A DNA stretch of 64,000 nt, taken from NCBI GenBank assembly GCA_000092065.1, contig CP000594.1. One strand, given 5' to 3'. This stretch comes from Ostreococcus lucimarinus (lineage: Eukaryota). The translations under genes and the position numbers were made by a program. Under the pieces are notes generated by a model. The model was not told the DNA's origin. It did no database searches and was given only the letters and a program-made list of their open reading frames with translations. Shown here one piece after another: positions 1,218-34,790 of the stretch. Within the stretch, counting starts at the first letter, position 1. Each line of letters begins with the position of its first letter.

Positions 1218-2396
1218 TCATCGGTTTGGAACTTGGGAGAAACCACCTAGAAAGTTGAGCGCCAAATTCTTCGCCGAGTCCGCCGTCAGGGATTGTATTT
1301 CACGATCCAAGTGCGCGCGATGCGTCGCCCGCGGACTGGCGTAGGCGTAACTCGCGTGTCGAAGCGTGACCTCGACCCCTCGCGTCAACGACTCGTACGC
1401 CTCGCCGAGATCGGAATCTTTGAACCTTTCTAACTCATCCATATCACCGTCGATGATGTGCCAATGCTCGCCCGGACGCGCGGTGGTGGCGATGAGATTC
1501 GCCGCGGCGAGCGAGCGCGAGGCAAAGTTTTCGGTCGGGATCACGCAGACCCCGTAACCGTCGACGTCTTCGGCGACTTCGAAACCGTTTTCTCTAAATA
1601 TTTCGCGGCACCTCTCCACCGCGCGTCCGCGCGAATTCAAGACGAACACCTTGCTCCCGCGCGCCAGCGCGGCGTGCAAGAGCGGTTTCAGGTCCTCGTA
1701 CACGACCTGCTCGCCCGCGCTCGTCCCCGGCTCGCCGTCCGCCGTCGTCTCCATCCGACGCGCGTCCACCGACGCTTGCAAACCCGCCGGCATCATCCGT
1801 CGCCCGTCCCACCCGACGCTCGACTCCACCTCCTCCCCCCACTTCAACACGCTCATCAACTTTATCTCCGGCCAGCTCGACACGATCTCGTCCACCGTCA
1901 ACGGCCTCGTTCTTCGCTCGAACCGCTGCTCGTTTGAAAACACCGGCCCCGGCCGCCCGCCGCTCGTCGTCCGCCCGCCGATGATCGCCTCGTCCGCGAT
2001 CACCCGCACCATCACCACCGCCTCGCACGACGTCGACTCCGCGATCGCTCGTCGCATCGTTCGCATCGCCTCGACGTACGACGACGCGTCTCCCGGGACG
2101 TGCTCCGGCCAGCGCTCGCGCGCCACCGCGTGGCTCACCCTCGTCATCTCCACCGTCGCGTCCACGACGGCGTCGTACGCGAACAGCACGACGTCGCGCG
2201 ACCGCTCGATGGCGTCGTCGTCGCTCGCGTCGCTCGCGTCCGCCGCGCGTCGCGCGACGCGTCGGCGTCGCGCCGACGCCGACGCCGATGTCCCGCTCGA
2301 TCGCGTCGCGCGGTCGCGCGCGCCTCGCGCGGTCGCGGTCGCGCGCGCGCGCGGCTCCGGACGCGCGCGCGACGCGTCGATCGCCCGCGCGTCCAT
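1218..2396 (-). CDS. Hypothetical protein. The C-terminal half is proteinaceous and Rossmann/DUSP-like; a Rit1-type tRNA-modification protein is only a guess.
   Basis: The C-terminal ~250 aa of the 720-aa minus ORF has balanced composition (VFVLNSRGRAVERCREIFRENGFEVAEDVDGYGVCVIPTEN...HWHIIDGDMDELERFKDSDLGE). The N-terminal part of the long ORF is Arg-rich and antisense to the JmjC gene, so I placed the start at the in-frame ATG at 2396. Confidence 0.4.
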   Translation of the reverse strand: MDARAIDASRARPEPRARATATARGARDRATRSSGTSASASARRRRVARRAADASDASDDDAIERSRDVVLFAYDAVVDATVEMTRVSHAVARERWPEHVPGDASSYVEAMRTMRRAIAESTSCEAVVMVRVIADEAIIGGRTTSGGRPGPVFSNEQRFERRTRPLTVDEIVSSWPEIKLMSVLKWGEEVESSVGWDGRRMMPAGLQASVDARRMETTADGEPGTSAGEQVVYEDLKPLLHAALARGSKVFVLNSRGRAVERCREIFRENGFEVAEDVDGYGVCVIPTENFASRSLAAANLIATTARPGEHWHIIDGDMDELERFKDSDLGEAYESLTRGVEVTLRHASYAYASPRATHRAHLDREIQSLTADSAKNLALNFLGGFSQVPNR

Positions 2397-2456
2397 GGCG
2401 CGCGCGCGTGTCGCGCCGCGCGCCGCGACGACGCTCGGAGGGACGCGGGACGCGCG

Positions 2457-3935
2457 ATGCGACGAAAAGATATTTTGTTTCGCGCCGGACGCCGCGAGCG
2501 TTTTAATCGCGCGACACACTCGTCGTCGCGCGGCCGATTCGGGACGCGCGCGACGCCGCGGGGCGCGACGTTGCGCGGAAAAACATATCGAAGATCGATC
2601 TCGCACGGCGGCATACGCGCGTACGGCGCGCGAGGCGTCGCGAGACGGGACGACGATGGGGAATCGCGCGAGGCGAGCGTTTCTGAAGACGAGACGACGC
2701 GCGGGACGGGGGGGTGGACGCCGCGCGCGCGCGAGGATTTCGGGACGTCGGGAGGGGCGTTTCCGGAGATTAACGTCGTGCAGTTCGTGGACGCGGAAGA
2801 CGGGGCGCCGGTGAGTTGTTTTGGGATGGATTACGAGACGCTGCGGCGGCGCGCGGCGGAGGCGGCGTTCGACGAGACGTCGACGACGCCCGAGTATCGT
2901 GGGTTTTTGAATCACGCGAGACGGTGCGTCGATGGGAGCGGAAAGATCGACTGGGGTTCGGTGACGCGCGTGGGGGGGCTGGCTGGGTCGAGAGAGGTGC
3001 GGCGGGCGCGCGGGGTGGACCCTCGGGACGTCGAGGCGGCGTGTTTGCGAGGCGAAGGCGAACCTTTGATCGTCGAGGACGGAGGGAAAGATTGGGCCAA
3101 GTGGGATTTTGAAACGCTTCAAAACGAAATCGGTGATTTTGAGGTGTTGTGTAACGATCGAGCGCCCGCGCGGCGACGAGAGATCGATGGATCCAAGCAG
3201 CGGTCGCACCTGATTCCGTTTCGGGCGTACGCCGACTACGTACGAAAGCGCGACGGCGTCGCCGGCACAGTCTTTGACGATCGCCGCACGCCGTTTTATG
3301 CAAACGGCATGCGCGTATTCAGCGAGTGCAAGCGCGCCGACGCCCTCTCGCGGGCGTTTCCACGACCTTATTTCACGCACGAGTGCGATAATACGGAGAC
3401 GCTGCTCATGGCGACAACGAACGAGCTCGGGTCGATACTCAAATTTGACTCGGAAATCGCGCTCAGAATGCGTGACAGCGTCTCAAAATCGCTCGACAAG
3501 ATGTTTGTCGGGCCTCGAGGCGCACTCACGCGCCTTCATTACGACGCCGGGGACGCTCACGGTTGGCTGGGACAGGTCGAGGGGCGGAAGCTCTTCGTGT
3601 TTTATCCGCCCAGCGCGTCGCCGATGCTTTATCCGATTGAAGACTCGCACGCCAGCGTCGATCCACTGGAGCCAGACTACGATCGATTTCCACTATTTCG
3701 CGAAGCGCAATCGCGCGCGCGAGTGTGCGTGCTGAATCCGGGAGAAGTCGTACTGTGTCCTCGACGATGGTGGCACTACGCCGTGGCCCTGGACACTAGC
3801 GTCACGGTTATGAGGAATTGGTACAACGTCAATACCAACGCCCAGGCGTTGGTCGAGCAGATATGCTCCACGATTAAACAAACAGTAGACAATAGAGCGA
3901 AAGGATCCGTGCCTCGAAACGAAGCGTCTCGATGA
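2457..3935 (+). CDS. JmjC-domain (cupin-like) protein, putative 2-oxoglutarate/Fe(II)-dependent hydroxylase
   Basis: Cupin/JmjC signature region: LTRLHYDAGDAHGWLGQVEGRKLFVFYPP...DPLEPDYDRFPLF...LNPGEVVLCPRRWWHYAVALDTSVTVMRNWYN. The first in-frame ATG clear of the opposite-strand gene is at 2457. Confidence 0.7.
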   Translation: MRRKDILFRAGRRERFNRATHSSSRGRFGTRATPRGATLRGKTYRRSISHGGIRAYGARGVARRDDDGESREASVSEDETTRGTGGWTPRAREDFGTSGGAFPEINVVQFVDAEDGAPVSCFGMDYETLRRRAAEAAFDETSTTPEYRGFLNHARRCVDGSGKIDWGSVTRVGGLAGSREVRRARGVDPRDVEAACLRGEGEPLIVEDGGKDWAKWDFETLQNEIGDFEVLCNDRAPARRREIDGSKQRSHLIPFRAYADYVRKRDGVAGTVFDDRRTPFYANGMRVFSECKRADALSRAFPRPYFTHECDNTETLLMATTNELGSILKFDSEIALRMRDSVSKSLDKMFVGPRGALTRLHYDAGDAHGWLGQVEGRKLFVFYPPSASPMLYPIEDSHASVDPLEPDYDRFPLFREAQSRARVCVLNPGEVVLCPRRWWHYAVALDTSVTVMRNWYNVNTNAQALVEQICSTIKQTVDNRAKGSVPRNEASR

Positions 3936-28705: not shown

Positions 28706-29530
28706 CTATGTTTCCGTGGTGACGTACGTGTACACGTCTCCCGATCGCCCGAATCCTAGGGGTAGTTTTTTACCCACGATGCCCGCGTAATCGCCGACGC
28801 TCCATCGGACGCACCGCTCGTGGAGCGCGTGCGCGTGCGAACCCGGCTCGATGTTTGGATTATTCAAGAACTCGTCCACGCTCGCCCACTTCGCGCGCTC
28901 GATCTCTGTTTCCTGAATCTTAATCTCCCTCGACGCTCCATCCTTGACGCGCAGGCCGACGCAAAAGAATAAATCAGATTTGCCAAACAACCCAAAGTGG
29001 CCGTGTCGACACCCCACGACGGCGTCGAACGTCGTCTCGATCCCAGTCTCCTCCAACACTTCCCGCACCGCCGCGTCGGGAATGTCCTCCCCAGCCTCCA
29101 ACAACCCCGTCGGCATCTTCCACAGATCTCTCCCGCTCGCCGGACCTCGTCGTTCCTGCACGAGGAGCACCTTTTCGTTTTCGCCGTCGTACACAAACGC
29201 CCCGACGCCAACCTGATGCGACGCATTATTCGGTATCGTCGACGCCTCATCGCTCGGCAACCACGTCGTCATCATCACATACGTTCTTTCGGCGTGATGA
29301 AACTCAAATCCGCGCTCCTTCGCCACCGGAACCAACCGCGCGTCGTCGAGCGCGAGCTTCAGCCACACCCCTCGCGCGCCGCTCGCGCGCCACGTCGCCA
29401 ACCACCCTCCCAGCGTCGCGTCGAACGCCTCCGGCGTGCGCGCCGCCCTCACGAACGCATCGTGCGCGTTATCGACGATGATCCCACCGTATCGATCGAT
29501 CGTCCACGGCGCGTTCGTCGCCGTCGCCAT
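28706..29530 (-). CDS. Nudix hydrolase with an N-terminal pre-Nudix domain
   Basis: Nudix box GLLEAGEDIPDAAVREVLEETGI. The N-terminal domain resembles plant NUDT2/6/7-type enzymes. The start is the ATG at 29530. Confidence 0.8.
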   Translation of the reverse strand: MATATNAPWTIDRYGGIIVDNAHDAFVRAARTPEAFDATLGGWLATWRASGARGVWLKLALDDARLVPVAKERGFEFHHAERTYVMMTTWLPSDEASTIPNNASHQVGVGAFVYDGENEKVLLVQERRGPASGRDLWKMPTGLLEAGEDIPDAAVREVLEETGIETTFDAVVGCRHGHFGLFGKSDLFFCVGLRVKDGASREIKIQETEIERAKWASVDEFLNNPNIEPGSHAHALHERCVRWSVGDYAGIVGKKLPLGFGRSGDVYTYVTTET

Positions 29531-29944
29531 CGACGTCCCCGCGGTCGCCGTCGTCGTCGTCGTCGCGTCGCGTCGTCGCGTCGCCTCGCGCGTCGCGCCG
29601 TGGCGCGTCGTTTTTCGCACCGTCGCTCGAGCGCGTCGTCGCGCGCACGCGACGAGCGTCCTCGCGAGCGTCGACATGCGCGGCGCCGCGCGACCGCGCG
29701 CCGCGCGCGCGTCCGCGCGCCCACACACGCGGGTGTCGCCCCGCCACATCCCGGCACCCATATACATACCATCAAACACACCCAAAGTACGCATACAAAC
29801 CACATACGAAATACCACGCGAAATCCATCATTAAAATCAGGCACCCCCCGCCGCGCCCCATCGCGCGACAGGCGCGTCGATTTCGAAATCCCGCGTCGCC
29901 CGCGCGCCACTCCGCGACGCCGCGCGCGCCCGAGCGCACGCGCG

Positions 29945-32637
29945 ATGCCGCCCGCGCTGACGCCGAACGCGATATCCAATATTCTCGAACAGACCCACGG
30001 ATCGCAGGACTTCAAACCCATCGTCCAAGTGTTCGATCTGAAGGAATTGAAAACCAAACCCGACGCCGACGACGCCGCGAAGCGATTCCGCGTCCTCGCG
30101 TCCGACGGTGGATTCGCGGCGCAGGGATTGTTCGGGGCGGAGTTGAACGCGATGTGCGAGCGAGGGGAAATTACGAAATTCACGGTGCTGCGGTTGAGAG
30201 AGTACATCGTGAACGATCTGAACGGGAGACGGTGCGTGCGCGAGATGGGTTGGGATGGGCGGCGCGGCGCGGCGCGGCGCGGCGCGAGGGGCGAGACGAG
30301 ACGCGCGAGGATGGAGACGCGCGATCGAGGGATCGCGATGATCTTGGATGGAAGCGAGGAAGGCGGCGCGATGCGCGAGGGGGGTGACTGACGATCGTGC
30401 GAACGGACGAATGGTTTGAACGTAGGATTTTGATCGTCATGGACGCCGAGGTGATGGATCGGTACGACGCCGTCATCGGACAGCCGCGGGTGTGGCAGCC
30501 GGGGACTGGGACGAACGCGTCGACGGGGATGAACGCGGGGGGGATGCAACAGCAAAGAAACGCGTACGGAGGAGCGCCGGCGGCGCAGGTGGAAGGCTAC
30601 GGGTCGGGTGGAGGGAACGGCGCGAATCTGGCGACGGAACCGCCGCGCGCGAGCGGTGGCGGGTACGGTGGCGGCGCGCCGGCGGCGCAGGGGCAGTATC
30701 GTCGAGATGGTGGCGCGGTGGCGCGCAATGAGCAGCCGAGGTCCATCACGCCGATCCATGCGTTGAACCCGTACCAGAACCGTTGGACTATTCGCGCGCG
30801 AATCACGACTCCGTTGGAGTTGCGCTCGTATTCGAATGCGAAAGGCGAAGGTAAGGTGCTCGGCTTTCAAGTGCTCGATGCCGACGGAACGGAGATCAAG
30901 TGCGTGTGCTTTAACGACACCGCCGTGCGCCTCGCGGGGGAGTTACGTCAAGGCTTGGTGTACGAAATTTCCAAGGGAGCAATCGTCACGCCGCGCGACC
31001 CGCGGTACGCGATTTATCAGTACGAAATTAAGTTGGATAACCACGCGACGTTCGTGCCGTGTCCAGACGCCGAACGCGACATCAAGAAGATGGTATACAA
31101 GTTCAAGAAGCTTTCTGAACTCGACGCGCTCAACGCCGGAGATATGGTGGATGTCATTGGCATCGCATACTCTGTGGGTGATTTGACGACGATCATGAAG
31201 CGCGACGGTTCCGAAACTTCGAAGCGTTCTGTGATGATTCGCGACGACTCGGACACATCCATCGAGTTCACGCTTTGGGATCCGCACTCAGTCGAGATTG
31301 GCGGGCAAATCGAAAGCTTGATCGCTAGCGGCGAAAAACCCGTCATCGCGGTGAAGAGCTCTCGATTGGGCGAGTTCCAAGGCAAGAACATGGGCACCGT
31401 GAGCAGCACGATGGTAGAAATAAATCCCGACAGTTCCGAGGCGACGCGCATGCGCGTTTGGTTTGATCAAGGCGGCGCCGATAAAACTTTCAACTCCTTG
31501 AGCGGTTCTGGCGGTGGCGGCGGCAAAGGCAGTGGTGAATTGCTCTCGTTCTCGACTGTGAAAGAGATCGGTGAAGAACTCGTGGCTAAAAATGAGGGCG
31601 TGGCGTACCTGAGTTGCTGCGGTATCATAAAGCACATCAAACTCGGCGCGGAAGGTAACTTCTATCCCGCGTGTCCGTTGCTTAATGGTGAACGCACGTG
31701 CCAAAAGAAGCTGCGTAAAGATGACTCGACTGGTGAATGGAAGTGCGAACGTCACGCCGGTGAAAAAATCGAAGCCGCGGATTGGCGTTACATGTTTAGC
31801 ATGGTTTGCATGGATCACAGCGATGAGTATTGGGTGAGCGTTTTCGGTGACAAGGGTGACAAGATTTTCGGGATAAGCGCCGCTGAAATGAAGGAAATCT
31901 ACGACCGTGAACCGGAGCGATACGAAAACATGATCAGTGACGCACTGTTCAACGATTACTCTCTACGCGTTAAGGTCGCCGTTGACAACTACACCGACGT
32001 ACCCCGCGCCAAGGGCAGCTTGGTTGAAATCGAGCGCGTCAACTACGTAGACATGAGCAAGAAGTTGATCGGCAAGATTGCAAAGCTTCACGCTGGCGAA
32101 GAACCCGAAGTGTACGTGCCGCCTACGAAGAAGCGTGCTTCCGATGTCGGTTACGGGCAGGAGAACAAGATGCCGGCGTTCAACGGCGGTTGGAACCAAG
32201 CGGGTGGGCAAGCCAACGGTGGTGGCGCGAGTGCCGCGAACGCCGCGAACGCAACTTGCTACAAGTGCGGTCAGACCGGTCATTTTGCGGCAGCCTGCCC
32301 GAGCGGTGGCGGCGGCGGCGGCGGTGCGTCGTACAACCAATTCAATGGCAACGGCGGCGGTGGCGGCTTCAACAACAACGCTCCGAAGAAGGGCGCTTGC
32401 CACAAGTGCGGCGGAGAGGGACACTGGGCGCGCGACTGTCCGAACGCGGCCTACATGGGCAACGGCAACGGCGGTAATCAACCGGTGCACAACGGCAACG
32501 GCTACGGTGGTGGCGGCTACGGTGGCGGCGGCGGCGGCTACGGTGGCGGCGGCGGCGGCTACGGCGGCGGCGGCGGCGGCTACGGCGGCGGCGGCGGCGG
32601 TTACGGCGGTGGTGGCTACGGCGGCGGTGGTTTTTAA
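29945..32637 (+). CDS. RPA1: Replication protein A large subunit (RPA1/RPA70), two exons, with two C-terminal CCHC zinc knuckles and a Gly/Tyr-rich tail
   Basis: Exon 1 (29945..30231) is the RPA70N domain (FKPIVQVFDLKEL...RFRVLASDG...FTVLRLREYIVNDLNGRR). Exon 2 (30426..32637) carries the OB-fold DBD-A/B/C and the C4 zinc ribbon. It ends with CYKCGQTGHFAAACP and CHKCGGEGHWARDCP knuckles and GYGGGGGG repeats. The splice CG|GTGCGTGC ... CTGAC ... GAACGTAG|G joins ...DLNGRR to ILIVMDAEVMD, reproducing the conserved GRRVVILMELEV junction. Confidence 0.85.
30232..30425 (+). other. Intron of RPA1 (194 nt, GT-AG)
   Basis: GTGCGT donor, a CTGAC branch motif ~36 nt from the 3' end, and a TAG acceptor. 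The flanking ORFs are in different frames, which the splice reconciles. Confidence 0.8.
32500..32632 (+). repeat. In-frame GGC/TAC codon tandem repeat, (GGCGGCGGCGGCGGCTAC)n, encoding (GGGGGGY)n
   Basis: ggctacggtggcggcggcggcggctacggtggcggcggc... at the 3' end of RPA1. Confidence 0.85.
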
Positions 32638-32723
32638 AATCAGATCACGAACAAACGCACGAACGCACGAATAGATGACACGCGCATGTAACATGAACGA
32701 ACGAATACAACAAATTACAAACA

Positions 32724-34790
32724 CTATTCGTCGACGAGCGGAAGCGCGTCTCTCGAACGGATGGCTGGAAGCATAGCCGGAATCAAGTTCAGGTAATCTT
32801 CCAACAGTCCTGTCGTGGTGATGAACTGCCACGTGAAGAAGGCCATGACGAGTGATACGAAAAGCGTGGCGACGAAAGCGCGCTCGCGGAAACCCGAACG
32901 CCGGATCATAGCGATCGTCGTTGCCATGACGGGATGAATCGTCATTCTGAAGTAGAACATCGGATAGAAAACGACGAGCGCGACGGAGTACACGGCCAAG
33001 TGTCTCAAGTACTGACGACGCTGTGACCCAGACATTTGCTGCCACGTAAGACCTCGCCACGAGCCCGCTAAAGCTCGTCGCGGCGGTCTTGGAACGAAAG
33101 GTTCATGCTTGCACTTGACGCAGTGACACTTACCACCCACGATGCAACGAGGCAAGATGTGGGGCGAAAACTTTTCATGCAGCTTTTCGATGCCATCGTC
33201 GTCCGCTTGGTAAATCAAAATGCGTCCCTTTGTGCTACTACTCACGACCTCGAGTAATATTTGCAACGCACGTCTCATGAGCCACCACACATTGATGCAA
33301 TGCACCTCGCACGCCAGCTCCGGGTAGTTGGCGTCGAGCGTCACGAGAGTCGTGGCGACGAGGGAAATCGGAAGCGAAGTCAAATCGATACCCGAGCAAT
33401 CGACGAGCGCCACCAAACGACCTCGCATGACACCATTTGACTTCTTCAACCGCATCCACTCCTGCTCGGCGTGCGTCATCACCGCGGCAACGACTTCGTC
33501 CAAGCCTTCCATGCCCACTGCGTCCATGGCGGCTCGAAGTCTCAGCACGAGTTGATAACCGCCGCTCCAGCTTTGCTTCGGACCGTGAATGTATACCACG
33601 TTCTCAAACTGCTTCAGCTTGGCGTCGGTCAAGAACTCATACCTTCTGCGCCATTGCAACGATCGTTCCACGGCTTGCGCCGCGGCGGACGTGTGCTTCC
33701 ACTGTAACAAGAAAGCCGCGAGTTGGGTGTCGGTGAACTTGGCTCTCGCGGTCGGCGAGAGTTTATTTTTCAAAGCGTGAATCTCGTATTCGCGGGGAAT
33801 TAACAGTGCGTTCCCGTATCCAGTATCTGTCGCCACCACACCAGTGTACACGGCGGCTGGCAGTCGTTGTAATCTATTCATTCCGCCCTTGACCCAACCG
33901 ACGGGGCGCAGCAGCGCGTGCCTTTGCCTATGGCTTTCGGCGTACTCTCTCGATTGATTGATGCTCTCGTCGTCGCTCTCTTCATCGCTACCTATGTCTT
34001 CGTCACTGGCGTACTCTCCGTTCGTCCCCGTTCCCGATCCACGTCGACGCCTTCGTCTGTTCCTAGCCCCCGTGAATCGCGCGATGGTGCTCAGCTGTCC
34101 CTCCGCGTGCCGCATCGCGTACAGCACGTCCCTCGGCAACGTCTCCTCCAAAACCTCCCACGCCTCGTTCACCGCCGCCCTATACGAACTCACCTCATTC
34201 TTCACCTTATTCTTCGCCAACAACTTCCCCAACCGCTTCGCGTGTCGCTGCAGCTTTATCCGCACCGCCGGAATCTTGCACACGCGCGCCGCCATTTTCG
34301 CAAACTTCCGCACGAAACATTTATACGGCGCCGACGCCGCGACGAGCAGCGCCACGCGTCCCGTGATCGTCGGCAGCGGCTTACTCGACGCCAGCCCCTT
34401 CGTCATCGTCGCCAACGCCTTGACGACGAGCGTTTCGATCCTTCGTCTTCGCGTCCCGACCGCGTTCGCCTTTAAAAATCCCAACGTTCGTCGTCCGCGG
34501 TGGTTGACGCGATACATCTCTCCCGCGCACACGCACGCCGCGACCAGCGGGCCGCGTCGTCGTCGGGCTTTGCGCAGCCAGACGACTCGCGCGGCGTAGC
34601 TCGCGAACTGCGCCGTGGGCGTCGTCGCGCGGTACAATTCGCGCGCGACCGCCGCCGTGGACGCCGTCGCGAGCGCGACGGCACCGCGACCGAGCGGGCG
34701 CGTCGTCGCGCGCGCGACGACGCGAACGGCGACCTCAGCGGTAGCACCATCGTCCGCGCGCGTCGACGACGCGCCGGACGACGGCGTCAT
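32724..34790 (-). CDS. CRAL-TRIO (Sec14-like) lipid-binding domain protein with C-terminal transmembrane helices
   Basis: CRAL-TRIO N-terminal helix pattern (AAFLLQWKHTSAAAQAVERSLQWRRRYEF) and core domain (VYIHGP...LVALVDCSGIDLTSL...YPELACEVHCINVWWLMRRALQIL...GRILIY). Hydrophobic C-terminus. Confidence 0.65.
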   Translation of the reverse strand: MTPSSGASSTRADDGATAEVAVRVVARATTRPLGRGAVALATASTAAVARELYRATTPTAQFASYAARVVWLRKARRRRGPLVAACVCAGEMYRVNHRGRRTLGFLKANAVGTRRRRIETLVVKALATMTKGLASSKPLPTITGRVALLVAASAPYKCFVRKFAKMAARVCKIPAVRIKLQRHAKRLGKLLAKNKVKNEVSSYRAAVNEAWEVLEETLPRDVLYAMRHAEGQLSTIARFTGARNRRRRRRGSGTGTNGEYASDEDIGSDEESDDESINQSREYAESHRQRHALLRPVGWVKGGMNRLQRLPAAVYTGVVATDTGYGNALLIPREYEIHALKNKLSPTARAKFTDTQLAAFLLQWKHTSAAAQAVERSLQWRRRYEFLTDAKLKQFENVVYIHGPKQSWSGGYQLVLRLRAAMDAVGMEGLDEVVAAVMTHAEQEWMRLKKSNGVMRGRLVALVDCSGIDLTSLPISLVATTLVTLDANYPELACEVHCINVWWLMRRALQILLEVVSSSTKGRILIYQADDDGIEKLHEKFSPHILPRCIVGGKCHCVKCKHEPFVPRPPRRALAGSWRGLTWQQMSGSQRRQYLRHLAVYSVALVVFYPMFYFRMTIHPVMATTIAMIRRSGFRERAFVATLFVSLVMAFFTWQFITTTGLLEDYLNLIPAMLPAIRSRDALPLVDE

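Follow-up and report, generated by a model that had tools for sequence, protein, structure and literature searches.

A two-knuckle, glycine/tyrosine-rich extension in a probable A/C-type RPA1 gene of Ostreococcus lucimarinus

How are the two parts of the Ostreococcus lucimarinus RPA1 gene, which lie in different reading frames, joined, and where does the encoded protein end? The gene occupies positions 29945–32637 on the plus strand of a 64,000-nt stretch of contig CP000594.1 (GCA_000092065.1), referred to here as the window. Its reference model, XP_001421229.1 of strain CCE9901 (‘predicted protein, partial’), has 650 residues. Our analysis indicates that the locus is very probably an A/C-type RPA1 gene with a conserved phase-2 intron, an 832-residue product and a lineage-typical C-terminal extension that the reference annotation missed. 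Its assignment to RPA1, first made by a sequence-only reading of this DNA, held: all RPA1 Pfam domains are present, the alignment with human RPA70 is collinear, and the spliced product matches XP_001421229.1 with 100% identity over amino acids 1–650.

Intron, reading frames and RPA70 core

The start codon at 29945 lies in frame 2, in which RPA70N-like sequence continues until a stop at 30391, and frame 1 has no stop between 30397 and the TAA at 32635–32637. The RPA70N domain thus lies in a different frame from the OB-fold body, as the sequence-only reading had stated. Joining position 30231 to 30426 removes 194 nt and yields a coding sequence of 2499 nt (832 amino acids) with the following elements.

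29945..30231, plus strand: exon 1 (287 nt, frame 2), with the start codon and most of RPA70N/DBD-F (amino acids 1–95 and two nucleotides of codon 96)
30232..30425, plus strand: predicted phase-2 spliceosomal intron of 194 nt (CG/GTGCGT...TAG/G), with a branch-like CTGAC at 30388–30392, 34 nt before the acceptor
30259..30286, plus strand: (GCGGC)5.6 microsatellite within the intron (100% matches in Tandem Repeats Finder; one extra unit in the environmental allele L005)
30426..32637, plus strand: exon 2 (frame 1), with the end of DBD-F, the linker, DBD-A/B/C, the C-terminal extension and the TAA stop at 32635–32637

The spliced junction reads ...NGRR/ILIVMDAEV and is aligned with human ...DGRRVVILMELEV, restoring the conserved GRR junction that had been predicted for it. 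In the alignment with full-length human RPA70, GRRILIVMDAEV is found opposite GRRVVILMELEV. The Pfam Rep-A_N match (amino acids 5–106; profile positions 1–99 of 101) runs across the junction at amino acid 96, and the RefSeq model XP_001421229.1 has the identical splice junction. In the annotated O. tauri gene, the homologous codon is interrupted by an intron of 143 nt, likewise in phase 2 (AC/GTGCGT...ACTGAC...CAG/G). Phase-2 introns in the same codon were also found in two metagenomic relatives, L003 (216 nt) and L004 (177 nt), with GTGCGT or GTACGT donors and CTGAC branch motifs. The environmental allele L005, which has no substitutions relative to the window in exon 1, differs from it within the intron, where the (GCGGC)n run shows an indel of 5 nt. 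This length is not a multiple of three, so that the indel would shift the frame if the region were coding.

Enumeration of GT/GC..AG pairs showed that 81 of them keep the frame open, 30232–30425 being the only pair that retains the whole DBD-F domain. Because the 81 open pairs rule out an argument from uniqueness, the choice of splice sites rests on homology, on the orthologue junctions and on the 5-nt indel. The donor hexamer GTGCGT is not enriched within the window (61 matches versus 66 expected) and is uninformative by itself. The predicted intron at 30232–30425 is supported as real by the intact DBD-F, the RefSeq junction, the orthologous position and phase, and the L005 indel. The 194-nt intron with its CG/GTGCGT...TAG/G boundaries, proposed initially from the letters of the window, is thereby borne out by the RefSeq junction and by three relatives, O. 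tauri among them.

In view of the intron's high GC content (69%) and of the simple repeat within it, a recent insertion of a mobile ‘introner’ element of the Micromonas type was considered. A blastn search of the intron against the 64-kb window, however, returned only low-complexity GC matches and no second copy. Moreover, its position and phase are common to four species, although the intron sequences are unrelated and their lengths differ (194, 143, 216 and 177 nt), from which it follows that the RPA1 intron is old. An introner or repeat origin was consequently rejected and is, in our estimate, next to impossible.

Gene calling in the databases merits a separate remark. Prokaryote-style calling of metagenomes splits RPA1 into two open reading frames (L005, 1044..1445 and 1501..3741) or reads through the introns (P0003 and P0008; 216 and 177 nt). 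Many picoalgal RPA1 ‘proteins’ in databases are for this reason truncated N-terminally or contain a translated intron. At the protein level, environmental members of the same 90% cluster differ from the spliced product at 3–5 positions; together with the full identity to XP_001421229.1, this assigns the window to the reference strain CCE9901 or to one almost identical to it. The N-terminus of the O. tauri orthologue reads MPPLLTPDAINNVL versus MPPALTPNAISNIL in O. lucimarinus.

Human RPA70 (8rk2_A) is collinear with amino acids 5–647 (E 1.9e-72). DBD-F is matched by Pfam Rep-A_N (PF04057, E 8.3e-26) and by RPA70N structures (E ~1e-8), and is followed by these segments.

30457..30735, plus strand: linker from DBD-F to DBD-A (amino acids 107–199), 25% Gly, 16% Ala and 10% Gln, with GGGYGGG motifs; predicted to be disordered
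30736..31425, plus strand: DBD-A and DBD-B OB folds (amino acids ~200–429), Pfam tRNA_anti-codon at 232–297 and REPA_OB_2 at 325–429
31606..32067, plus strand: DBD-C (amino acids 490–643), Pfam Rep_fac-A_C (PF08646, E 1.1e-31) and PDB 1l1o_C, the trimerisation core (E 4e-16)

The characteristic features of RPA70 that can be read from the sequence are present, namely DBD-F, DBD-A/B with aromatic stacking residues, and DBD-C with a four-ligand zinc motif. DBD-A/B match the RPA70 DBD-AB structures 1jmc and 1fgu (E ~1e-37). Equivalents of human F238, W361 and F386 are kept, and the F269 position is aligned to Arg, with a Tyr one residue later. The zinc motif of DBD-C, C512-x8-C521-x14-C536-x2-H539, is encoded at 31672..31755; its three cysteines are invariant in 26 sequences, and the His as fourth ligand in O. 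lucimarinus was noted previously (PMC4731521).

The AlphaFold2 model was that of the exon-2 product, and DBD-F lies outside it. The predicted local distance difference test score (pLDDT) is ~90 over the three OB folds and <50 in the linker (model residues 24–98), the spacers and the tail. DBD-C is followed by a C-terminal helix (amino acids ~636–651), modelled as such by AlphaFold2 (model residues 540–555) and aligned to 1l1o_C. Its counterpart in human RPA70 builds the trimer core together with RPA2 and RPA3. The Gly/Gln/Tyr-rich linker contains short repeats in relatives, such as YGGAQQGG in P0007, and low-complexity regions, the linker and the tail, are found on both flanks of the DNA-binding core.

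The C-terminal extension and its translation

Past the helix, the open reading frame encodes the following elements.

32089..32634, plus strand: C-terminal extension (amino acids 651–832, 182 residues), beyond the end of XP_001421229.1 and of non-green RPA1s
32257..32298, plus strand: CCHC knuckle 1, CYKCGQTGHFAAAC (amino acids 707–720), Pfam zf-CCHC and regular-expression match
32398..32439, plus strand: CCHC knuckle 2, CHKCGGEGHWARDC (amino acids 754–767), best Pfam zf-CCHC stretch at amino acids 753–769
32440..32634, plus strand: Gly/Tyr tail (amino acids 768–832, 65 residues), 65% Gly and 12% Tyr, ending in Phe; pLDDT ~30–37

Pfam zf-CCHC is matched in two stretches of the extension (E 6.5e-14). 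The knuckles, both of the CX2CX4HX4C type, are 33 amino acids apart and coincide with local pLDDT peaks (~81 for knuckle 1, ~78 for knuckle 2). Their best matches in the Protein Data Bank are retroviral (HIV-1) nucleocapsid knuckles, at marginal E values of ~1e-3. The O. tauri knuckles read CYKCGQTGHFAMNC (knuckle 1) and CRACGGTGHWARDC. A knuckle of the form GHWARDC recurs from Ostreococcus to angiosperms; because this form is generic for cellular and retroviral knuckles, a one-to-one orthology of algal and plant knuckles C1 and C2 is not claimed.

The tail contains 8 Tyr and 1 Phe, but no Ser, Gln or RGG. Tandem Repeats Finder reported a tandem repeat at 32505..32616 (period 21, 5.3 copies, 93% matches, score 175); inspection of the letters shows four 21-nt GGGGGGY units at 32521..32604 and GGGGY units on their flanks. 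Two CCHC knuckles and a Gly/Tyr tail arising from a 21-nt tandem repeat had been read from the sequence, and both are confirmed. The repeat had also been called perfect at the codon level. This is correct for the protein (four GGGGGGY units), whereas the DNA is near-perfect only, units 1 and 2 being identical and units 3 and 4 differing by synonymous GGT/GGC changes. Over the whole extension Gly amounts to 39%, its partners being Ala, Asn and Tyr rather than Ser; the sequence includes ASDVGYGQENK and GACHK...DCPNAAYMGNGNGGNQPVHNGNGYGGGGY.

Judged by its conservation, the extension is very probably a coding part of RPA1. The knuckles and the motifs PTKKR, QENKMP and GGWNQAG are kept in frame across relatives, and the O. 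tauri protein is annotated at 808 amino acids, both knuckles and the tail included. Between O. lucimarinus and O. tauri, Nei-Gojobori estimates for the extension gave proportions of non-synonymous (pN) and synonymous (pS) differences of 0.26 and 0.62 and a ratio of non-synonymous to synonymous substitution rates (dN/dS) of ~0.24, compared with 0.275 for DBD-F and 0.12 for the OB core. These ratios are rough, since pS is saturated (0.6–0.77) and the alignment of low-complexity sequence is ambiguous. In addition, a transcriptome-derived Picocystis protein (P0127) extends from DBD-F through both knuckles in one sequence.

Besides this saturation, several points weigh against a translated extension. 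The case rests on conservation, and no stop interrupts any of the six frames across the GC-rich tail, so that the continuity of the open reading frame is weak evidence by itself. The RefSeq model ends at amino acid 650. If it were right, the protein would stop near this residue owing to a splice or poly(A) site that escaped notice, which would leave the knuckle and Gly/Tyr region untranslated and open by chance. The end of XP_001421229.1 at ...IGKIAKL, the openness of every frame over the GGC repeat and the listing of this accession as lacking an extension (PMC4731521) would fit such a short protein. However, the model is flagged ‘partial’ and has no stop codon at this position, where the reading frame continues for 182 codons to the TAA. 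Its end coincides with the end of human RPA70 similarity, as expected of a homology-built model. Furthermore, the knuckles, their order and the PTKKR, QENKMP and GWNQAG motifs are kept in O. tauri and in all close relatives, and for the extension pN is much lower than pS. We therefore regard the short protein as most improbable and the 832-residue product as the better description of the gene.

Long open reading frames also run over the tail in other frames, namely 31963..33060 on the minus strand (365 amino acids) and 32078..32674 on the plus strand (198 amino acids), both Ala/Thr/Val-rich. They are read-throughs of the GGC repeat, that is, GC-rich low-complexity artefacts without the support of homologues.

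Distribution, tail length and neighbourhood

The occurrence of knuckles and tails was surveyed by a regular expression over all full-length proteins fetched and by extraction of the residues past the C-terminal helix. A homologue search with the whole protein was swamped by glycine-rich words (35 hits), and a rerun without the low-complexity parts gave a cleaner taxon spread. All of the ~10 closest 90%-identity clusters, which include O. tauri and several marine picoalgae, have two knuckles and a tail with 60–90% Gly+Tyr. Two knuckles, again with a G/Y-rich tail, were found in RPA1 of the lycophyte Diphasiastrum and of the angiosperms Stephania and Aristolochia, and one knuckle in Ceratopteris and Lithospermum; the best streptophyte matches of O. 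lucimarinus RPA1 all carry knuckles. In animals, fungi, amoebozoans and brown algae, RPA1 ends 5–8 amino acids past the helix.

The architecture had been called unusual, which the survey does not bear out: the closest clusters, the lycophyte and two angiosperms are alike in this respect. The published family analysis agrees (PMC4731521; Aklilu & Culligan 2016). There, plant group-C RPA1 is characterised by a Gly-rich extension with CCHC knuckles; outside the Brassicaceae, two knuckle clusters (C1 and C2) ~30 amino acids apart are usual, and the single knuckle is a special case of that family. The gene is otherwise an ordinary housekeeping gene, and its architecture is lineage-typical, not exceptional.

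Botryococcus (P0022), Prototheca (P0145) and two further relatives (P0021 and P0024) have a G/Y tail of 110–230 amino acids and no CCHC knuckle, which suggests secondary loss of the knuckles. Given these knuckle-less tails in core chlorophytes, the module is probably older than the split between chlorophytes and streptophytes.

The same publication describes O. lucimarinus ‘RPA1E’ as lacking a C-terminal extension and reports a knuckle, among the algae sampled, only in M. pusilla (PMC4731521). The statement on O. lucimarinus goes back to the truncated model XP_001421229.1. That the published no-extension claim reflects a truncated reference model is new but modest. The reference annotation, which lacks the last 182 amino acids, is corrected accordingly, as are the two inferences built on it in the literature, namely the absence of an extension in O. 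lucimarinus RPA1 and the restriction of knuckles to Micromonas. In our survey the knuckle extension appears universal in prasinophyte-type algae and common to them and land plants, and this moves the origin of the ‘plant-specific’ tail of repair-type RPA1 back to early green algae. A literature search for Ostreococcus RPA together with zinc found nothing relevant.

Two further observations were made on the sequences surveyed. In complete green-lineage tails the last residue is nearly always aromatic (…GGGGF, …GNGGW, …GGGQW, …GGRRY, …CGGGY, …KMEF), O. tauri with NWQQ being the exception. The scaffold P0126, labelled ‘Diacronema/Pavlova lutheri’ in EukProt, is 87% identical to P0127 (Picocystis salinarum, MMETSP) and shares its two-knuckle tail. 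Contamination or mislabelling of one source, rather than knuckles in haptophyte RPA1, is the likely reason for this likeness. An unspliced insertion is also present in P0126, at another position of DBD-F.

A comparison of the tail after knuckle 2 in eleven members of the O. lucimarinus cluster revealed, among metagenome-assembled alleles, the length polymorphism that the repeat had led the sequence-only reading to predict. Four classes were seen: 56 amino acids (two GGGGGGY units), 61 (two units and an extra GGGGY), 63 (three units and a GGGGNGY unit absent from the window) and 70 (four units and GGGGNGY). The allele differences amount to whole 7-residue units or to 2 residues. The window allele and the common environmental allele have tails of equal length (63-residue class) with a different order and content of units (GGGGY+GGGGGGY versus GGGGNGY+GGGGY).

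Some of this variation may be artefactual, since the tails of certain cluster members are corrupted or frameshifted: P0015 and P0037 are clearly assembly or frameshift artefacts, and the tail of P0049 is corrupted too. The copy-number differences might even result entirely from collapse or expansion in short-read assembly, considering that the variants come from metagenome assemblies and that the repeat (~130 nt) is close to short-read length. Yet identical alleles recur on many independent contigs (the three-unit allele P0044 on 66, the two-unit allele P0045 on 14), and tails of differing length also occur within other clusters, that of O. tauri among them. For the window and the environmental allele, collapse is excluded because the order of the units differs at equal length. 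A purely artefactual origin thus appears rather unlikely, and a true polymorphism is the preferred reading.

RPA1 (+) is flanked by genes for a NUDIX hydrolase (−) upstream and a CRAL/TRIO protein (−) downstream, an arrangement also found in O. tauri. RPA1 and the CRAL/TRIO gene converge, with only 86 nt between their stop codons (32638..32723), and the 3′ untranslated regions of both genes must for that reason be very short or overlapping. In green algae such as Chlamydomonas, polyadenylation is signalled by TGTAA. This motif occurs on each strand of the spacer, at 32687 on the plus and at 32719 on the minus strand, and the former is listed as a candidate.

32687..32691, plus strand: TGTAA, candidate green-algal polyadenylation signal 50 nt past the RPA1 stop codon

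The upstream region shared divergently with the NUDIX gene (29500..29960) contained neither an E2F site (TTTSSCGS) nor a mitosis-specific activator (MSA) element. An A/C-rich stretch at about 29740..29840 breaks the otherwise CG-rich promoter sequence.

Possible function and relation to known RPA1 proteins

In the mechanism that we propose, the OB folds would bind single-stranded DNA as in every RPA, DBD-F would recruit partner proteins and the C-terminal helix, by analogy with its human counterpart, would join RPA2 and RPA3. The two knuckles, held on a flexible glycine tether, may provide extra contacts with single-stranded nucleic acid or with partner proteins, and from the plant proteins such contacts would be expected to be required for the role of the A/C-type paralogue in repair and recombination. 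The tail could serve as a flexible, disordered and weakly self-associating spacer, the length of which would drift as its GGC-rich units of 21 nt and 6 nt slip during replication. In Arabidopsis RPA1C/E, deletion of the knuckle by CRISPR gives the null phenotype, with hypersensitivity to camptothecin and gamma rays and reduced single-strand annealing and synthesis-dependent strand annealing (bioRxiv 10.64898/2026.01.26.701817). Caution is called for, since the Arabidopsis proteins behind this functional argument have only ~32% identity to the algal one, and the authors of that work call the molecular role of the knuckle unknown (bioRxiv 10.64898/2026.01.26.701817).

Alternatively, the extension might act mainly on RNA, in post-transcriptional regulation or in the handling of R-loops and RNA:DNA hybrids, and not as an additional module for single-stranded DNA binding and repair. 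The Gly-rich layout with CCHC knuckles typifies RNA-binding proteins of plants, for instance AtGRP2 (PMC4731521; PMC11602973), CCHC knuckles often prefer single-stranded RNA (bioRxiv 10.64898/2026.01.26.701817), and the best structural matches are retroviral nucleocapsid knuckles. On the other hand, the Arabidopsis knuckle deletions equal the null mutants in DNA repair, for which according to the authors a purely regulatory role may not account (bioRxiv 10.64898/2026.01.26.701817), and the knuckles are tethered to a core that binds single-stranded DNA with high affinity. We consider a main action on RNA unlikely and favour the repair-related role.

More speculatively, and with considerable doubt, the two-knuckle Gly/Tyr extension might be ancestral in A/C-type RPA1 of the green lineage, the knuckles having been lost in core chlorophytes. 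The slippage-prone (G4–6Y)n tail would then be a tunable self-association module concentrating RPA on single-stranded DNA, needed for recombination and repair in picoalgae with two RPA1 genes. The proposed functional analogue would be the glycine-rich linker and tip of the bacterial single-strand-binding protein SSB. In O. tauri, genes have reportedly been targeted by homologous recombination. If this holds, a haploid unicell with two RPA1 genes could be used to probe the knuckles and the G/Y tail.

The paralogue type was to be settled, according to the sequence-only reading, by comparison with the RPA1 family, and this comparison points to an algal A/C-like progenitor. XP_001421229.1 is listed as ‘Ol RPA1E’ (PMC4731521, Suppl. 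Table), with Arabidopsis RPA1E as its best hit (32%, 1e-110). The second O. lucimarinus paralogue, XP_001422250.1, is RPA1B, and there are only these two (PMC4731521). Placement of the gene with RPA1A/C rather than RPA1B rests on the same study (PMC4731521). Plant group C is distinguished by an extension of ~120–180 amino acids past DBD-C and by at least one CX2CX4HX4C knuckle; O. lucimarinus RPA1 has 182 residues there, compared with at most 8 in non-green RPA1s, and two knuckles. Against membership of group C, the DBD-C motif is C-x8-C-x14-C-x2-H (CCCH) and not the C6 motif of plants; a C4-type zinc motif is described for algal A/C-like sequences (PMC4731521). The gene is therefore best filed as an algal A/C-like progenitor type, not as group C in the strict sense. 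With a single further RPA1 paralogue in O. lucimarinus, the gene probably serves in the A as well as in the C role.

With human and yeast RPA70 (PDB 8rk2, 1jmc, 1l1o) the protein has in common the collinear order DBD-F/A/B/C, the DBD-C zinc motif, the C-terminal helix and the stacking aromatic residues. These homologues differ in that they end 5–8 amino acids past the helix, without extension, knuckles or G/Y tail, and in that their zinc motif is C4. The tail had been likened to FUS, and FUS-type low-complexity domains do resemble it in the regularly spaced Tyr residues of a Gly-rich segment predicted to be disordered. The comparison is nevertheless loose: the 65-residue tail is not a long S/Y/G/Q-rich domain with many [GS]Y[GS] motifs and, with 65% Gly and 12% Tyr and neither Ser nor Gln, it is nearer to plant glycine-rich proteins than to the SYGQ domain of FUS. 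Among such plant proteins, AtGRP2 combines a cold-shock domain with two CCHC knuckles interspersed with glycine-rich segments (PMC11602973), and by functional analogy the algal tail might be an accessory for binding or melting single strands. The likeness to such class IV proteins (AtGRP2/CSDP) is one of layout only, an OB-type fold being followed by two knuckles in Gly-rich sequence. The cores are unrelated and Pfam detects no cold-shock domain in O. lucimarinus RPA1, so that the resemblance does not amount to family membership.

The O. tauri protein (XP_022841136.1 / A0A096PAV9, 808 amino acids) has the same gene neighbourhood, intron position and phase, two knuckles and a G/Y tail. It differs in sequence (~60% identity), in its irregular tail without a clean 21-nt repeat, in its end (NWQQ versus F) and in intron length (143 versus 194 nt). 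Finally, plant group-C RPA1 (Arabidopsis RPA1C/RPA1E; rice, maize and tomato RPA1C) shares with the O. lucimarinus protein the full set of RPA70 domains and the Gly-rich, knuckle-bearing extension. The two are set apart by the zinc motif (CCCH versus C6), by the composition of the extension, which is Gly/Tyr/Asn/Ala-rich in O. lucimarinus versus Gly/Ser-rich in plants, and by the regular (GGGGGGY)n tail of the algal protein.

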